DNA of 44,513 bases from Escherichia phage Gluttony, in the sequence record NC_031113.1; one strand, written 5' to 3'. Shown here one piece after another: positions 387-42,352 of this stretch (its first letter is position 1; the number at the start of each line of letters is the position of its first letter). The position numbers and the translations under genes are program-made. The notes under the pieces are model-generated. The model saw only the letters and a program-made list of their open reading frames with translations. It was not told the DNA's origin and did no database searches.

Positions 387-965
387 TTATTTCAGTGCGC
401 TACGTACCAGTGTTTTTTCCATGTTGCGGAAGTCTTCCGGCGTCATGAGGATTTTGGACCCATCCTCTCCAGTGAGCACGACCATAGGCTGGACGTCCTG
501 GGCCGCTACGCCGAAATTGGCGGCTTTGACAGTCTTCCCGAACGAGGCCACCACACCTTCGGCAACGCGCATCGCACTGTTATACGCATTAATCTCGCCA
601 TCTAGTCGTACGGACAGGTCTTTGAGGCTGTCGAATTGTGCTGCCGTTGTGTCGATCTGGATCTCGTCATGCACGGTCATGTACGACTCGCCCAGCAGTG
701 CGGCATATGCTACCAGGTCAACGATGTTATCGTCCTGGTGCTTACGGTGCTGGCGTACCAGCTTCAGGCAGATCAAGAAGGTCCAGGCTTCTTGCTCGGT
801 CAGGTCGCGACCGGTAAGCGCGTTAAACACGTCAGCGATCTGTTTAGCGCTACGCTCTTCTTTCGCGTTGTCATAGCCGTTTTCTTTTCCGCGCTGTTCC
901 ATAGTGGTGGCGGCGTTTTTGCAGTATTCGTATGCTTTCATTATGTGGTCCTTTTTAGGGGCCAT
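387..965 (-). CDS. Hypothetical protein, 192 aa (alternative start at 941)
   Basis: ORF track; helical, charged sequence; function not recognised. Confidence 0.5.
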   Translation of the reverse strand: MAPKKDHIMKAYEYCKNAATTMEQRGKENGYDNAKEERSAKQIADVFNALTGRDLTEQEAWTFLICLKLVRQHRKHQDDNIVDLVAYAALLGESYMTVHDEIQIDTTAAQFDSLKDLSVRLDGEINAYNSAMRVAEGVVASFGKTVKAANFGVAAQDVQPMVVLTGEDGSKILMTPEDFRNMEKTLVRSALK

Positions 966-1470
966 ATCGCCCCGACGAGTTAACTATAGTGCAACCAATA
1001 GGTTGGTTGCAAGTAAATTTTGCAACGTTTATCGCATAAATTTTCGAGACCAGATCGCTGCACGCCCGTCGAATGGCCGCGATGTTCTTCGGGCAGTCTT
1101 CAATGATGACCAGTTCCGATACGTCCGCATAGCAGACCATTTTGAACACGGCGCACGCTTTAAACTCTGGCGGCGGGGTATCGTCCAGCATGTGGCGCAT
1201 AAACAACCGGCCTACGGGGAATACTTCCAATTGCTCGACGGTAGTCTCCCAGCATTCTCGCTGCCGGTTGGTCAGATACGCGATCTCGAAGCCTTGCTCT
1301 TTGTACATGGTCAGCAGCGGCAGCATATCCATGTTCAGATCTTCGCGTATATGCGCTTTGTGCCACTTCGCCCAAAAGGTGGATTTTGTTTTTATACCTG
1401 GCACCAGGTCGGCACGCGCATCGCTTGAACCATTAATAACGCCATCAAGATCACAAATCAGTAGTTTCAT
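955..1470 (-). CDS. HAD-superfamily phosphatase-like protein
   Basis: N-terminal LICDLDGVI matches the HAD motif I (DxDG) pattern. Confidence 0.5.
   Translation of the reverse strand: MKLLICDLDGVINGSSDARADLVPGIKTKSTFWAKWHKAHIREDLNMDMLPLLTMYKEQGFEIAYLTNRQRECWETTVEQLEVFPVGRLFMRHMLDDTPPPEFKACAVFKMVCYADVSELVIIEDCPKNIAAIRRACSDLVSKIYAINVAKFTCNQPIGCTIVNSSGRYGP
984..1012 (-). promoter_or_regulatory. Sigma70-like promoter (TTGCAA-17-TATAGT) inside the palindrome TTGCAACCAATAGGTTGGTTGCAA
   Basis: -35/-10 spacing read on the minus strand; contains the recurring ATTGGTTGCA motif; lies inside the 3' end of the upstream ORF. Confidence 0.4.
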
Positions 1471-1691
1471 TTTAATTCCTCAACCAAATCCGAACGAACA
1501 ACTCTGGCGGAAAACTTGTTACACACAAGATGCCAATTTGCGGTTATGACAAGCCAGCCGGTAAGGTCCAGACCCAGGATATATTCTGGACGTGACACTC
1601 GCTTCACACGATCGCGGCGCGGATCGATGTTATAGTCTCTTTGCATTCGGTCTACTACCGCAGGGTCGCGGTCAACGATTAAGATATTCAA
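1467..1691 (-). CDS. Hypothetical protein, 74 aa
   Basis: ORF track; overlaps neighbours in operon fashion. Confidence 0.35.
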   Translation of the reverse strand: MNILIVDRDPAVVDRMQRDYNIDPRRDRVKRVSRPEYILGLDLTGWLVITANWHLVCNKFSARVVRSDLVEELK

Positions 1692-2157
1692 GGAGTTCTC
1701 CTTCGCTCATTATTTCAATTTGTGCGCTGCCGGTTGGTGGCGCTTCGTCAAATATTATCAATTGCTGGCACTTGTTATTGCTCGGCCCGACTTCACCGGT
1801 GACAGCGTGTATAAATCTCACCCGCCAGTCCAGAAGAATTATCATATTGGCAGTCTTCCGGGCCAACTTCGCCCACTTCGTCGACGTGTCCTGATTCAGT
1901 AGCATGACAGTCCGGCGACCGTGCGCTGCGCATTCCACCCACGGCAGCGGGTCGGAATACGGCGGATTGCACCACTTCCACCCTTTCAAATCAGCCCAGT
2001 CCACATCAAGCGCGCTATGTTCTGCTGTGAAGTAACGCGGTAGCAGGTGGTTGGCATCGCTTGCCGCCATATCGTAACGGAATCGGTATTTCCGACGAAG
2101 CGGTTTGAATAAAGCTGGCGGCGTGCGCCAGCTATCTTTTTGCTCACTCTTCTGCAT
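1672..2157 (-). CDS. Phage DNA N6-adenine methyltransferase (Dam-like)
   Basis: WRTPPALF and CNPPY motifs typical of the phage Dam family. Confidence 0.8.
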   Translation of the reverse strand: MQKSEQKDSWRTPPALFKPLRRKYRFRYDMAASDANHLLPRYFTAEHSALDVDWADLKGWKWCNPPYSDPLPWVECAAHGRRTVMLLNQDTSTKWAKLARKTANMIILLDWRVRFIHAVTGEVGPSNNKCQQLIIFDEAPPTGSAQIEIMSEGELLEYLNR

Positions 2158-2608
2158 GACCTGGATCTATCGCGTATAAAGGGACTTTATTGCCGGTTTT
2201 CATAACGCGCTGGACGCGCTTTGACTCCTCGGCGCTCATTGGGCGCATATCAGTGCTATAACCACCGTTTGATGTGTGCCGCCACGCTATCAGCACCAGA
2301 TCTTTCCGGTCGATCTTAGACTGGCGGCCCTTCGGTCGCACGTACGCCTCGGCCCGTTTGCAATGCTCGCGCAGACCTTCGGCAGTGATGCGGTTTAGCG
2401 CGACGGTGGTTGTGTACCCGGTGCGCTGCATAATACCCATCAACCCATACAGCAGTTCGAAGCGCTCCTCTAACTCCTTGCGCATCTTTTCCTCGCCTTC
2501 ATAGCTCGCCAGGTAGGTATCCGCCAGCGCGTTCGCCCGTTCGACCTGTTCGCGGGCTTCGAGGCATTGCGCGGCCCAGTAATTTTTCTCTTCTTGTAAA
2601 ATTTTCAT
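2144..2608 (-). CDS. Hypothetical protein, 154 aa
   Basis: ORF track; coiled-coil-like N-terminus. Confidence 0.45.
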   Translation of the reverse strand: MKILQEEKNYWAAQCLEAREQVERANALADTYLASYEGEEKMRKELEERFELLYGLMGIMQRTGYTTTVALNRITAEGLREHCKRAEAYVRPKGRQSKIDRKDLVLIAWRHTSNGGYSTDMRPMSAEESKRVQRVMKTGNKVPLYAIDPGHAEE

Positions 2609-12775: not shown

Positions 12776-12805
12776 ATGATAGATTGGTTGCAGGATGGGT
12801 GTCAA
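12776..12805 (-). promoter_or_regulatory. Leftward early promoter (TTGACA-18-TATCAT)
   Basis: Consensus -35 read on the minus strand, about 190 nt upstream of the ATG at 12579. Confidence 0.5.
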
Positions 12806-12981: not shown

Positions 12982-13311
12982 ATGAATATCAAAGAAGCAA
13001 TTGAAGTGTTATCTAATGCAATCCGCGGCGAAGCGGGTAAATCCTGGTATTACACAAATGCGGTGGATACTCTGTTATTTGAAGTGTCCAGATTATCGCG
13101 TGCTGAGAAGGAGCTTACCGCGAAGCTGGAATTGCTCAACGGCACGGCAGCAAGCAAGCTGCAAAAACACAATGAAGAAATGGAAGAATACAAAAAACAG
13201 GTTATCCGTCTACGTGAGGAAGGTAAATCCTGGGCGATGATTGCCGAGTTGACCGGAATTAATCAGAGCACAGTGCGCTCCTGGGTACGCAATAATAAAA
13301 CTTCTAAGTAA
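12982..13311 (+). CDS. HTH DNA-binding protein, putative transcriptional regulator
   Basis: C-terminal KSWAMIAELTGINQSTVRSWV helix-turn-helix; coiled-coil middle. Confidence 0.5.
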   Translation: MNIKEAIEVLSNAIRGEAGKSWYYTNAVDTLLFEVSRLSRAEKELTAKLELLNGTAASKLQKHNEEMEEYKKQVIRLREEGKSWAMIAELTGINQSTVRSWVRNNKTSK

Positions 13312-15902: not shown

Positions 15903-16062
15903 GAATAAAATCCGGGGATTGCAAAATACACGGCAGCATGATGCTAAGTGCGGTCGTCGATGAACTAGGCAACCAATGCAGGTTGTATTATGCTGAGTGA
16001 AAATGCGGTTTGCAGTCACAGCAGATAGCGATCAACTTTTTCATGCGCGTGATTAATATTGG

Positions 16063-16091
16063 TTGCACCCTGCCTGGCGCCCTGCTATATT
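16063..16091 (+). promoter_or_regulatory. Sigma70-like promoter (TTGCAC-17-TATATT) formed by two TATTGGTTGCAC copies
   Basis: Spacing counted directly; 29 nt upstream of the ATG at 16120. Confidence 0.5.
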
Positions 16092-16119
16092 GGTTGCACA
16101 CCAACAAGAGGACTGAACG

Positions 16120-16425
16120 ATGAAAGCATTAATCTGGAATTACACATCAGCGGTCGCAGCGCTCTATGAAGCGAAGCACACAAACGGCAACGCCGACCAC
16201 GCACGCCAGGCTGTAATGTTCGCGCAGCAGGCAATCTTTGCAGCGTTCGACAACATGGGCGTCAGCCTGGATGAACTGGAACCATTGCGTGTGGCAATCT
16301 GCGAGTATGCGATGAAATTCGCCCGTGAGCGTCTTGCGTACCGGTTTGGCATCGGAGAGACGGCAGTGACTAACATCGCTCGCATCACGGCTCAGCGTGA
16401 GCTACACGCCTTACTTGCGAAATAA
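16120..16425 (+). CDS. Hypothetical early protein, 101 aa
   Basis: ORF track; RBS AGAGGA. Confidence 0.5.
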   Translation: MKALIWNYTSAVAALYEAKHTNGNADHARQAVMFAQQAIFAAFDNMGVSLDELEPLRVAICEYAMKFARERLAYRFGIGETAVTNIARITAQRELHALLAK

Positions 16426-16434
16426 GGGGCTAAA

Positions 16435-16704
16435 ATGGCACGTAGACGCGCTAAATGGTTATCCTGGTATATTCCCCTGCATAGCATCCGTTTATGGGCG
16501 CAGAATGCGATTGAGGGTGATTCTGTGTTCTGGAGCTATCGGGATGACGTCAAGCCGCTGACGCAGACCAAAATGCTGCACCAGTTCATGAACGAACACG
16601 GACTGCCGGTGAAAACATCATTGCAACCAATCGGCATCCGTATTACATTACGCCGTAAGCCAATCGTTGCGCAGGTTGGCAAACACAAGAGACTGAGCAA
16701 ATGA
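16435..16704 (+). CDS. Hypothetical early protein, 89 aa
   Basis: ORF track. Confidence 0.45.
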   Translation: MARRRAKWLSWYIPLHSIRLWAQNAIEGDSVFWSYRDDVKPLTQTKMLHQFMNEHGLPVKTSLQPIGIRITLRRKPIVAQVGKHKRLSK

Positions 16705-24976: not shown

Positions 24977-25277
24977 ATATGCAGCGATCGGACTGGTTAT
25001 CGGTCTGGTGGTAGGATTCTGGCAGGGTGATTCCTACCGAGCTGCCGTTGTGGCGAGAGCATCGCAAGAAGCGCAAGCGAAAGCCCAACGGCAGCAAACT
25101 AAGGTTGTCGAGGGGGCTGTGCAGGCAGAACAGGCCCGCGATGTGGAATACCGGACTATCACGAAAGAGGTTGTGAAATATGTTACGCGTCCTAACCGTC
25201 CTGATTGCAGTTTTGATGCTGAGCGCGTGCGGATCAAGCAAAGCGCCATTGATGCCGCTAACCGAGTCGGTCTATAG
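24939..25277 (+). CDS. i-spanin (Rz-like); start may be GTG near 24966
   Basis: N-terminal TM segment IKYAAIGLVIGLVVGFW followed by a coiled-coil region. Confidence 0.65.
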   Translation: MHSLKTGGYGVIKYAAIGLVIGLVVGFWQGDSYRAAVVARASQEAQAKAQRQQTKVVEGAVQAEQARDVEYRTITKEVVKYVTRPNRPDCSFDAERVRIKQSAIDAANRVGL

Positions 25278-25410
25278 ACCGCCTTGCACCTTTGAGAATG
25301 CCTCGGCAGATCCAGACGAAGACTTGCTGGTTGATGTTAAGAATATGGAGTGTGGTGCGAAGCTGCGGGCGCAAGTGCTGGAGTTGCAGAAAATAATTCG
25401 GGGGCCGTGA
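25180..25410 (+). CDS. o-spanin (Rz1-like lipoprotein) in the +1 frame overlapping the i-spanin
   Basis: Signal peptide with lipobox LSAC, proline-rich mature region, conserved Cys. Confidence 0.7.
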   Translation: MLRVLTVLIAVLMLSACGSSKAPLMPLTESVYRPPCTFENASADPDEDLLVDVKNMECGAKLRAQVLELQKIIRGP

Positions 25411-25422
25411 TGGCCCCCTTTT
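25391..25422. terminator. Bidirectional intrinsic terminator between the o-spanin and the minus-strand moron
   Basis: GGGGGCC-GTGAT-GGCCCCC with T-runs on both sides. Confidence 0.7.
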
Positions 25423-25424
25423 CG

Positions 25425-26189
25425 TTAGCGCGGAATACCGCAAATCTCGTTTAGTGTTTTCACGTCCAGCGCCACCGCCGTGGACTTCGGCTTGTCCGGG
25501 TAAGGAATGAACTGTTCAACTTCAGGCCACGCCTTGATCAGCTTCTTATCTGTATTGTGCATATCCAGCACGCCGGTAACAGTTAGTTTGAACGCGTCAT
25601 ACTTAGCACGCAACTCACGGCGGGCCTTGTCGTTACGGTCCAGGCGCTTGCAGAAATCATGACCCGCCGGGTAGTCTATACGACCGCGTGGCTTATATAT
25701 CGGCAGCGCTTTCCCGTCGTCGTCGACTTCGCACACTGACGCTAACAAAATTTCCTCATACCCTGGCACAATATCGCCGAGATCGGGGGATAGTTTATTC
25801 ATGTATTTATACTCCCAGTATCCTCGATGTACTCGGAATCGGTATCCGTCTCCGCTCAATGACACGGTACGGACGTTTCCGCCTGCGTTGATTTCGAAAG
25901 TGGCGTCGTAAACGCTGCCTATACCATATGGGTTGTCGTCGTCATGTCTATACGTCGCCTTGTTGGTGTATACGCTTACTCCGTACATCTGCGACGGGTC
26001 ATCGCCGATTGCTTTAATGCGCGAGAGTAGCTCGGCGAAAGTGCGAATGCCTTCCGGCATACAGTCCAGCGTAATGGCGTACGCCAGATTTCGAGAGTCC
26101 ATCATGATTGATTTGGCTTCGGTCGCGATTTCGTGGTCGCGCAGGATGTTAGCCAGAATCTGGTTTTTAATGTCTTTCGTCAGTCTCAT
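25425..26189 (-). CDS. Moron: 254-aa protein of unknown function on the opposite strand inside the head gene block
   Basis: Start at MRLTKDIKNQ with GAGGA RBS; own promoter and terminator; no recognisable motifs. Confidence 0.6.
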   Translation of the reverse strand: MRLTKDIKNQILANILRDHEIATEAKSIMMDSRNLAYAITLDCMPEGIRTFAELLSRIKAIGDDPSQMYGVSVYTNKATYRHDDDNPYGIGSVYDATFEINAGGNVRTVSLSGDGYRFRVHRGYWEYKYMNKLSPDLGDIVPGYEEILLASVCEVDDDGKALPIYKPRGRIDYPAGHDFCKRLDRNDKARRELRAKYDAFKLTVTGVLDMHNTDKKLIKAWPEVEQFIPYPDKPKSTAVALDVKTLNEICGIPR

Positions 26190-26218
26190 TTGTGTGTCCT
26201 CGTTGTTGGTGTGCAACC

Positions 26219-26248
26219 AATATAGTGCAACCAATACGAGGATTGCAA
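26219..26248 (-). promoter_or_regulatory. Promoter for the moron (TTGCAA-18-TATATT) with two GTGCAACCAATA copies
   Basis: Leader and RBS near-identical to the 16063 promoter cassette (TATATTGGTTGCACACCAACAA-GAGGA). Confidence 0.5.
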
Positions 26249-26255
26249 GCGAATT

Positions 26256-26283
26256 TTGCGATTATTTTTATCGCTGATAATAT
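26256..26283 (+). promoter_or_regulatory. Candidate promoter for the scaffold and capsid genes (TTGCGA-16-TAATAT)
   Basis: Hexamer spacing read directly. Confidence 0.35.
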
Positions 26284-26338
26284 TAGAAGCGTGAAGTCGA
26301 GCGGGTGGCCTGCTCTGCCACAATCCCAGGGGGATAGC

Positions 26339-27043
26339 ATGAAACTTACTAAAGCAGAATATGACGCGTTGCCGGAAGGTATGAAGGCGCTTTTTGTTGC
26401 CGATGGTGACGGGTATAAGTCAACGTTCATGACCGCAGAAGAAGTACAGGCGGAAATCAAGGGTCTGAAAGACAACAACGCGAAGCTGGTGAGCGAGAAG
26501 AAAGCAGAAGCTGAACGCCGCGCCGAAGCTGAGCGCCTTGCGAAAGAGAAAGAGGAAGCCGCCGCGCGCAAAAATGGCGACCTCGAAGCGATCGACAAGT
26601 CCTGGAAGGATAAGTTTGCGAAACACGAAGCAGACACATCGGGAAAAATCGAAGCCTACCGCAAGCAGATCCACGATCTAACCATCGGCAGCGCTGCCAA
26701 AGACCTGGCATCGAAGCTATTCGGTAAGAATGCGGGCATCATGCAACGCCACGTAATGGACCGCCTGACGCTGGAAGACGGCGAAGACGGCAGCTTGAAA
26801 GTGCGTGTCTTGCAGGATGGCAAACCGTCCGCGCTGACTATGGAAGAGCTTGAAAAAGAGTTCCGTAATAACGCCGATTTTGCATCCGTCCTGGCTGGCA
26901 CGCCAGCCGGTGGCGCGCCTAGCAAACCGACGCAGGTTGTCGAAGATGTGAAGTCGAAAATCACTATGGGCCACAGCTTCGGTATCACTGACCTTACGAA
27001 ACAGGCAGGTGAAATCATCGCTAAGATGGGCGACGACGAGTAA
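26339..27043 (+). CDS. Scaffolding protein
   Basis: Coiled-coil-rich 234-aa protein directly upstream of the capsid gene; RBS AGGGGGA. Confidence 0.6.
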   Translation: MKLTKAEYDALPEGMKALFVADGDGYKSTFMTAEEVQAEIKGLKDNNAKLVSEKKAEAERRAEAERLAKEKEEAAARKNGDLEAIDKSWKDKFAKHEADTSGKIEAYRKQIHDLTIGSAAKDLASKLFGKNAGIMQRHVMDRLTLEDGEDGSLKVRVLQDGKPSALTMEELEKEFRNNADFASVLAGTPAGGAPSKPTQVVEDVKSKITMGHSFGITDLTKQAGEIIAKMGDDE

Positions 27044-42036: not shown

Positions 42037-42060
42037 AAAGCCCCGAAAGGGGCTTATTTG
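42037..42060. terminator. Bidirectional intrinsic terminator
   Basis: AAGCCCC-GAAA-GGGGCTT with T-rich flanks. Confidence 0.6.
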
Positions 42061-42272
42061 CAGGTTGTGCTTTTGAAATGGTCTACAGACACGTACTGGA
42101 AGCTAAACGGATAACCCGCCCTTAGCATTTTATGCCCGGAGAAGTCCGCAACACCATACACAGGTACCGCATAATCCATGCCGCTATTCTGGTATGTGGC
42201 GTCGCAGACTTTAGCGGGCATGTTGGCACAACCGGACAAAAGAACCGCACAAATCATAATTAAAGTTTTCAT
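42054..42272 (-). CDS. Moron: small secreted lipoprotein, candidate superinfection-exclusion (receptor-blocking) protein
   Basis: MKTLIMICAVLLSGC signal peptide with lipobox; AGGAGA RBS; own promoter and terminator; opposite strand between tail genes and tail fibre. Confidence 0.65.
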   Translation of the reverse strand: MKTLIMICAVLLSGCANMPAKVCDATYQNSGMDYAVPVYGVADFSGHKMLRAGYPFSFQYVSVDHFKSTTCK

Positions 42273-42303
42273 GGTATCATCTCCTATATTTGGTCGAGTT
42301 TCA

Positions 42304-42331
42304 GTATTACACCGCTCAACCAGGATTGCAA
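42304..42331 (-). promoter_or_regulatory. Promoter for the lipoprotein moron (TTGCAA-16-TAATAC) containing AATTGGTTGCA
   Basis: Hexamer spacing read on the minus strand. Confidence 0.45.
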
Positions 42332-42352
42332 CCAATTTATGAGGATTTAGCT

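Follow-up and report, generated by a model that had tools for sequence, protein, structure and literature searches.

What is a single minus-strand gene doing inside the head gene block of Escherichia phage Gluttony? The genome record (NC_031113.1; 44,513 nucleotides, hereafter the window) holds an open reading frame (ORF) of 254 codons plus stop at 25425..26189, on the strand opposite to the head genes and between the o-spanin gene (end at 25410) and the scaffold gene (start at 26339). A first-pass annotation, made from the letters and their ORFs, had described this ORF as a moron (an autonomous cargo gene) carrying its own promoter and terminator, with a product matching no family and an undescribed function, possibly host interaction or defence. 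The ORF and its position were borne out. The gene is almost certainly nmad5 (Pfam PF18757) of the Dhillonvirus coliphages, and the reading that we favour by a little is that it is an early, dispensable accessory gene whose product would bind a partner rather than catalyse a reaction.

The family assignment comes from profile searches, in which the protein matches PF18757 over its full length (E = 4.2e-54, 184.2 bits against a cutoff of 27, residues 1–253 on model positions 1–206 of 206) and also matches phrog_1965 (E = 6.8e-62), so the claim that it belongs to no family was wrong. The signature residues of PF18757 (R2-L3-T4, G104, T213, L217, W221-P222-E223, L246-N247, G251 and P253) are all present, and the protein carries every position that is conserved at 85% or more in a 107-sequence family alignment. 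Profile searches of NCBIfam and PADLOC with the protein returned zero matches. Over the 2.3-kb region compared, the DNA is 100% identical to that of Escherichia phages Lust and Pride (Dhillonvirus) and 93–99% identical to that of many Dhillonvirus members, some of whose records already label the gene Nmad5 or nucleotide-modification-associated protein. nmad5 is already known from Pfam, PHROGs and PGAP, and a PF18757 member has been studied experimentally in the same genus (PMC11846954), so the gene is not undescribed in the sense first supposed. Two other identities were ruled out: Ksap1, the KpAvs2 activator of Dhillonvirus SECphi18, has 74 residues and is encoded elsewhere, and the trigger of RAZR is the portal.

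Translation of nmad5 starts at the ATG at 26189, which follows a GAGGA Shine–Dalgarno sequence (26197..26201, minus strand) and a 7-nt spacer. All Nmad5 homologs compared start MRLTK, and an in-frame stop in the window caps any N-terminal extension at 269 residues. The GC content of the gene is 0.515, compared with 0.545 for the genome, and its GC content at third codon positions (GC3) is 0.612, compared with 0.61–0.62 for the adjoining head genes. An Rfam scan of 25000..26600 gave zero matches at E ≤ 1.

Upstream lies a predicted sigma-70-type promoter (26219..26248, minus strand), identified by promoter scan, motif enrichment and conservation in 156 phage records. Its hexamers, TTGCAA (26248..26243) and TATATT (26224..26219), are separated by 18 nt and score 9/12 in a consensus scan. 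Two direct copies of the 12-mer TATTGGTTGCAC (26236..26225 and 26222..26211) extend over the spacer and the −10/+1 region; the window as a whole has five copies of the 12-mer against 0.22 expected, and the 9-nt core TTGGTTGCA ten times against 0.45 expected. A 23-nt −10/leader element, CTATATTGGTTGCACACCAACAA, is identical at 26225..26203 on the minus strand and at 16085..16107 on the plus strand (two exact copies against 0 expected), and both copies are followed by GAGGA, 7 nt and an ATG. The second copy belongs to a sister promoter and leader outside nmad5, used here for comparison only (16057..16119, plus strand; TTGCAC-17 nt-TATATT, the CTATATTGGTTGCACACCAACAA element, GAGGA and the ATG at 16120). 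The first-pass annotation had proposed a promoter with a recurring motif and a leader and ribosome-binding site nearly identical to those near 16063..16091, and both proposals held. The leader element is also kept in LM40P1, whose Nmad5 is 63% identical, and a promoter of the same design with duplicated motifs is found in a relative with a 41% identical Nmad5. A structured RNA leader was considered and dropped, since the TTGGT/ACCAA hairpin is no stabler than shuffled sequence (z about −0.4 and 0.05).

Downstream, terminator scan and folding identified a hairpin, GGGGGCC-loop-GGCCCCC, at 25400..25418, which is terminator-like on both strands (−18.4 and −17.6 kcal/mol; z-scores of −2.9 and −2.0). 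It looks like a two-way terminator common to the convergent spanin and nmad5 transcripts, in agreement, as a prediction, with the bidirectional terminator first suggested. nmad5 is a real stand-alone gene on the strand opposite to the head genes, with its own predicted promoter and terminator. The hairpin is also terminator-like for the rightward late transcript, and the promoter scan showed no sigma-70-like promoter on the plus strand between the hairpin and the scaffold gene; read-through, or a late promoter type outside the coverage of the scan, are possibilities for transcription of the scaffold and capsid genes.

The ten TTGGTTGCA copies indicate which other genes share this promoter type. 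Most lie, as read by eye, at or beside a −35-like hexamer with a TATAnT-like hexamer 16–18 nt downstream. Copies are found upstream of a DUF6378 gene (990/1003), of the ORF at 2144..2608 (2680), of a helix-turn-helix (HTH) gene and the AAA_25 primase-helicase gene (12784), of the gene that opens the long rightward block (16059/16090) and of a minus-strand gene for a small lipoprotein amid the tail genes (42327), in addition to the two in the nmad5 promoter; the copy at 16622 has no evident −10 hexamer. Because of this context, the motif appears to mark host-type promoters, namely those of the replication side and of two opposite-strand genes inside the late block, and the promoter type makes early expression of nmad5 probable. 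The copies at 990/1003 form an inverted repeat, TTGCAACCAA-cctA-TTGGTTGCA, with an operator-like look. Between the motif promoter at 12784..12792 and the AAA_25 primase-helicase gene, a 109-residue protein with an HTH or sigma-70 region-4-like domain is encoded (12982..13311, plus strand), which could be a regulator acting at the TTGGTTGCA promoters. The opposite-strand gene in the tail block (42054..42335, minus strand; promoter motif at 42327..42335) encodes a small lipoprotein, MKTLIMICAVLLSGC..., which is labelled 'superinfection exclusion protein' in phage UDS3lw; HK578 has different genes there.

The company of Nmad5 genes in other phages was surveyed at 54 IMG/VR loci, a sample biased by the peptide patterns with which it was found. 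It comprises 11 loci of Dhillonvirus type, 6 of a replication-operon type and about 15 in which Nmad5 lies 1–3 kb from a cI-like repressor gene; at several more, Nmad5 adjoins kil, erf or single-stranded DNA-binding protein (SSB), exonuclease or replication-protein O genes. Certain phages of about 41–49 kb share the replication module of the window (AAA_25 primase-helicase, DUF2800 nuclease, Enc34-type SSB, PolA, SNF2 and Dam, at 47–67% identity), and in these Nmad5 is co-directional within the replication operon, about 1 kb upstream of DUF2800. The lambdoid phage mEp235 carries a canonical Nmad5 (E = 3.7e-72 to PF18757) in the pL operon between N and kil/erf, and 211 of 5426 complete E. coli genomes have PGAP-annotated copies of this allele (at least 90% nucleotide identity). 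The Nmad5 gene precedes that of replication protein O in Vibrio phage Athena1 and lies between the helicase and Holliday-junction resolvase genes in phage Bas97.

A different neighbourhood is found in the M6-like Sphaerotilus phage SN1 and in Bordetella phage CN2, where Nmad5 lies between aGPT-Pplase1 plus 5-hydroxymethyldeoxyuridine (5-hmdU) kinase genes and a thymidylate-synthase-like hydroxymethylase gene. The family takes its name from this thymidine-hypermodification neighbourhood; its founding paper is reportedly that of Iyer et al. in 2013. Thymidine-hypermodification genes were present at one of the 54 sampled loci (L071). In the window, no homolog of the SN1 hypermodification proteins was detected by tblastn at E ≤ 1e-3, and none of the Pfam-scanned ORFs contains an aGPT-Pplase1/2, 5-hmdU kinase, hydroxymethylase, radical S-adenosylmethionine (rSAM) or pyridoxal phosphate (PLP) enzyme domain. 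The sole modification gene found is that of a Dam methylase (1672..2157), about 23 kb from nmad5, and the genomic link of PF18757 with base-modification genes is thus not seen in the window. The hypermodification neighbourhood is a minority context, and Nmad5 genes lie mostly in early, replication or recombination operons.

nmad5 has the properties of a near-core gene of the genus that has long been resident there. A Dhillonvirus-type Nmad5 (at least 60% identity) is present in about 148 of the 156 records in which the promoter/intergenic region is conserved; the opposite-strand position beside head-morphogenesis, portal and terminase genes is kept where Nmad5 identity has fallen to 41% (L012) and 37% (L028); the promoter is kept; and GC3 is native. 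The gene is nevertheless dispensable, since phage deleted for it remains viable (PMC11846954) and tblastn found no Nmad5 homolog anywhere in the type phage HK578, whose slot holds a 140-residue gene instead. Presence across relatives therefore gave a divided answer to the moron proposal. The part that stood is that of an autonomous, opposite-strand, dispensable accessory gene that is missing from HK578; variable, imported cargo it is not, given its presence in nearly all promoter-bearing records, its synteny in distant relatives and its native composition. No relative was seen with the nmad5 slot empty.

An exchangeable, moron-like part of the locus does exist beside the gene. In relatives, a variable cargo slot separates the promoter-leader of nmad5 from its ribosome-binding site; in the window the slot is empty. 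At least three unrelated types of small gene occupy it in relatives: one of 104–109 residues (phrog_24635) in about 61 Dhillonvirus records, one of 140–172 residues in 7 records, with further relatives in Serratia and Erwinia phages, and a third, phrog_2510-like, in a more distant relative. Slot genes lie at 1533..2051 in SM_W22 (L005), 1530..1844 in welsh (L006), 1747..2169 in HK578 (L014), 1748..2077 in Bas85 (L015) and 403..723 in L012; within that of SM_W22, about 105 bp are tandemly duplicated. Eight of the 11 IMG/VR loci of Dhillonvirus type have 176–587 bp more than the window between nmad5 and the capsid gene.

An AlphaFold2 model of Nmad5, built with a 42-sequence alignment, is confident, with a predicted local distance difference test score (pLDDT) of 90.1 and a predicted template modelling score (pTM) of 0.83. 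It comprises a long antiparallel helical hairpin (residues 20–42 and 178–209), a β-rich middle domain (residues 79–173) and short C-terminal helices. Structure searches with the model found no relative among solved structures and no fold match to any enzyme, and the sole matches in BFVD were other unannotated Nmad5 proteins. The 107 family members share just three invariant residues, L217, W221 and N247; P222, L246, T213, P229, G104, E223, P253, R2, L3 and G251 are conserved at 85–98%, and H177 and C250 are present in 47% and 45%, respectively. The conserved polar set thus appears small (R2, T213, E223 and N247), with no catalytic-looking constellation. In the DSSP assignment of the model summary, residues 2 and 213 form a β-bridge, a sign that the T-x3-L-x3-WPE motif and the conserved N-terminus may come together in one patch, where the conserved residues would cluster. 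Within the genus, residues 51–90 are the most variable (about 1.0–1.2 bits per site) and residues 1–20 and 181–254 almost invariant. Compared with the family, the Dhillonvirus proteins also carry lineage-specific insertions at about residues 75–90 and 122–156.

Yamashita et al. (Commun Biol 2025; PMC11846954) have published experiments on nmad5 in SM_A8 and SM_S22, both Dhillonviruses. Mutant phages that escape Tmn, a defence based on a transmembrane KAP NTPase, bear the Nmad5 substitution K216E or K296E; sensitivity to Tmn returned when the mutation was reverted, and engineering the mutation conferred resistance (PMC11846954). An nmad5 deletion phage was viable and still sensitive to Tmn, with no escape, and cloning of the gene failed, which the authors explained by toxicity (PMC11846954). 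Removal of the gene thus did not abolish sensing in the published data, as removal of a Tmn trigger would be expected to do (PMC11846954). The proposal of host-interaction or defence cargo accordingly survives as an interplay of the gene with a defence system, through the K216E escape, and fails as regards imported cargo.

The window protein is 96% identical to that of SM_S22, and its residue 216, which aligns with their residue 296, is a lysine, the wild type at the escape site. The two published numberings arise from an over-extended start: the SM_S22 protein in GenBank has 334 residues compared with 254 in the window, its annotated start lying 80 codons upstream. In SM_S22 (PP627283.1 CDS0006, L007 726..1730) this extension crosses the intergenic promoter into the start of the scaffold gene. 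The 334-residue form was rejected in view of the in-frame stop in the window and the MRLTK start of the homologs, and is very likely a mis-called start. All 38 Dhillonvirus-type sequences compared have K216; family-wide, this position holds K in 61, Q in 23, R in 10 and A in 8 sequences, is never acidic and lies beside the invariant L217. As judged from this alignment, K216E would be a non-natural charge reversal at a conserved site of the family, which fits the published picture of an altered-function allele and not a null.

The anti-Tmn activity described in SM_S22 was assigned to ORF35, a gene distinct from nmad5. By numbering and description, SM_S22 CDS0035 appears to be this ORF35 of PMC11846954, and it has an 81% identical counterpart in the window, a 154-residue ORF at 2144..2608 (minus strand) directly downstream of the Dam methylase gene. 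The phage therefore has both an anti-Tmn homolog and a wild-type nmad5. Since small sequence differences alter anti-Tmn efficacy (PMC11846954), activity of the product of 2144..2608 cannot be assumed. A 74-residue ORF at 1467..1691 (minus strand), between the Dam methylase gene (1672..2157) and that of a HAD-type phosphatase (955..1470), fits, by length and position, the published description of Ksap1, through which SECphi18 activates the Avs2 defence of Klebsiella (bioRxiv 10.1101/2024.01.31.578182), and may be its counterpart.

Taken together, these results lead us to prefer, by a modest degree, a reading in which nmad5 is a replication-module gene lodged in the head block, with replication and recombination genes as its functional company, because it lies inside the replication operon in phages with the orthologous module and in the early-left operon of lambdoid phages. 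Host RNA polymerase would transcribe it early, together with the DNA-replication genes, from a promoter of the TTGGTTGCA set, other members of which precede the operons of the replication side, the first operon read rightward and the second opposite-strand gene among the tail genes. The product would bind some component of DNA metabolism, from either host or phage, rather than catalyse a reaction, through a single patch formed by the N-terminal R-L-T, T213-x3-L217-x3-W221-P-E and the C-terminal L-N-x3-G-x-P. As K216 would lie within this conserved patch, the K216E substitution would change the very interaction by which the infection is exposed to Tmn. For the non-catalytic binding role taken by itself, we put the chances at about even.

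Several points weigh against this reading. The early assignment draws on promoter type and motif company, the clustering of the patch comes from a single DSSP bridge (2–213) in the model summary, and the survey of loci is subject to the bias stated above. A binding factor has, moreover, no known partner, and the conserved polar residues R2, T213, E223 and N247 could constitute a minimal active or ligand site. The association with hypermodification genes is also real in SN1/M6-like and CN2-like genomes.

In a rival reading, to which both the Pfam name and Yamashita et al. (PMC11846954) point, Nmad5 is a DNA base-modification enzyme or its obligatory cofactor and Tmn senses, or is affected by, modified phage DNA. 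The neighbourhoods with aGPT-Pplase1, 5-hmdU kinase and hydroxymethylase genes in SN1/M6-like and CN2-like phages, repeated at L071, are as it would predict, PGAP calls homologs 'putative nucleotide modification protein', and a Dam-type methylase is encoded in the window itself. Such genes accompany Nmad5 at only 1 of 54 loci, however, most loci being lambdoid early-left or PolA/DUF2800 replication operons, and the window has neither an SN1 hypermodification homolog nor such a domain in its scanned ORFs. Nor does the protein have catalytic-looking invariant residues or an enzyme fold match. Deletion of nmad5 leaves Tmn sensitivity unchanged (PMC11846954), which is hard to square with sensing of a modification made by Nmad5. 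We consider an enzyme or cofactor of this kind unlikely. A literature search found no published biochemical activity in nucleotide modification for any Nmad5, and the label 'DNA modification enzyme' is probably an artefact of guilt by association, given the operon company, the lack of hypermodification genes here, the seemingly non-catalytic residues, the fold without relatives and the placement of the escape residue in the putative patch.

A further reading, to which we would likewise give little credence, regards nmad5 as moron-type anti-defence or counter-defence cargo whose product would inhibit a nuclease or some host immune system besides Tmn. An own promoter and terminator, dispensability (PMC11846954; HK578 has no homolog), failed cloning with apparent toxicity (PMC11846954) and lambdoid homologs in the pL accessory region beside kil and anti-RecBCD genes would all suit such a gene, as would the hypervariable surface segment 51–90 between near-invariant termini, a pattern typical of arms-race proteins. 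Yet Nmad5 is not known to inhibit any defence system, deletion neither sensitised nor desensitised the phage to Tmn (PMC11846954), the gene is near-core in the genus and compositionally native, and sister lineages hold it in replication operons, not accessory islands; the zero PADLOC matches add little, as PADLOC covers defence and not anti-defence. A head-assembly or other virion-related protein is highly improbable. Its sole support is the position between the head-morphogenesis/spanin and scaffold genes, kept down to 37–41% identity, whereas the opposite strand, a promoter type of replication-side genes, homologs that elsewhere lie in early or replication regions and never in head modules, dispensability (PMC11846954) and absence from HK578, which has the same head genes, effectively exclude it.

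The preferred reading of a binding factor admits a bolder version, which we regard as a long shot: Nmad5 would be a new fold and a non-enzyme, a widespread early phage factor of Dhillonviruses, lambdoid prophages, PolA/DUF2800 siphophages and M6-like phages, whose patch (R2, T213, K216-L217, W221-P-E223 and N247) binds a host component of DNA metabolism or of the envelope, and Tmn would guard that interaction. Such guarding would explain why escape follows from charge reversal at K216 but not from deletion. The finding uncovers no undescribed element; what is still of interest is the biochemistry of Nmad5 proteins and the doubt that the present evidence casts on their 'modification enzyme' label. 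Its function carries practical weight, as nmad5 alleles decide whether Tmn stops therapeutic Dhillonviruses, and the comparative results steer experiments to the binding partners of Nmad5.

Among known systems, the closest is nmad5 of SM_S22 and SM_A8, which is the same gene at the same locus, with the same promoter region and the same terminator position; those are the phages of the published experiments, whereas the window phage (Lust/Pride) is known here from its sequence alone. With PF18757/PHROG 1965 as a whole, the window protein shares the entire model and the motifs N-terminal R-L-T, G104/G113, T-x3-L-x3-W-P-E and L-N-x3-G-x-P; the Dhillonvirus protein differs in being about 40 residues above the family median of 212 and in having no adjoining modification gene. 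The Nmad5 of lambdoid prophages (such as mEp235 and Shiga toxin (Stx)-converting phages) belongs to the same family and is a stand-alone protein of about 207 residues, encoded among early-expressed accessory genes of the pL operon and named 'Nmad5 family putative nucleotide modification protein' by PGAP. BLAST aligns only its C-terminal ~100 residues with the window protein, at 31–32% identity, and in these temperate phages the gene is co-directional with its operon, whereas the window gene is an opposite-strand insert in the late region. In the thymidine-hypermodifying phages, the Nmad5 proteins (Pseudomonas M6, Sphaerotilus SN1_019 and Bordetella CN2 gp15) are 37–42% identical to that of the window over the C-terminal 80 residues, but their genes are embedded in a cluster of aGPT-Pplase, 5-hmdU kinase and hydroxymethylase genes that the window phage does not have.

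Classical morons, such as those of lambdoid phages, were defined by Hendrix and colleagues. nmad5 resembles them in forming a self-contained unit of promoter, gene and terminator that lies between two late genes and on the strand opposite to theirs, the predicted promoter and terminator enclosing a single gene. It differs from them in being near-universal in its genus, in a base composition that is native rather than unlike that of the genome, and in keeping its synteny in distant relatives.

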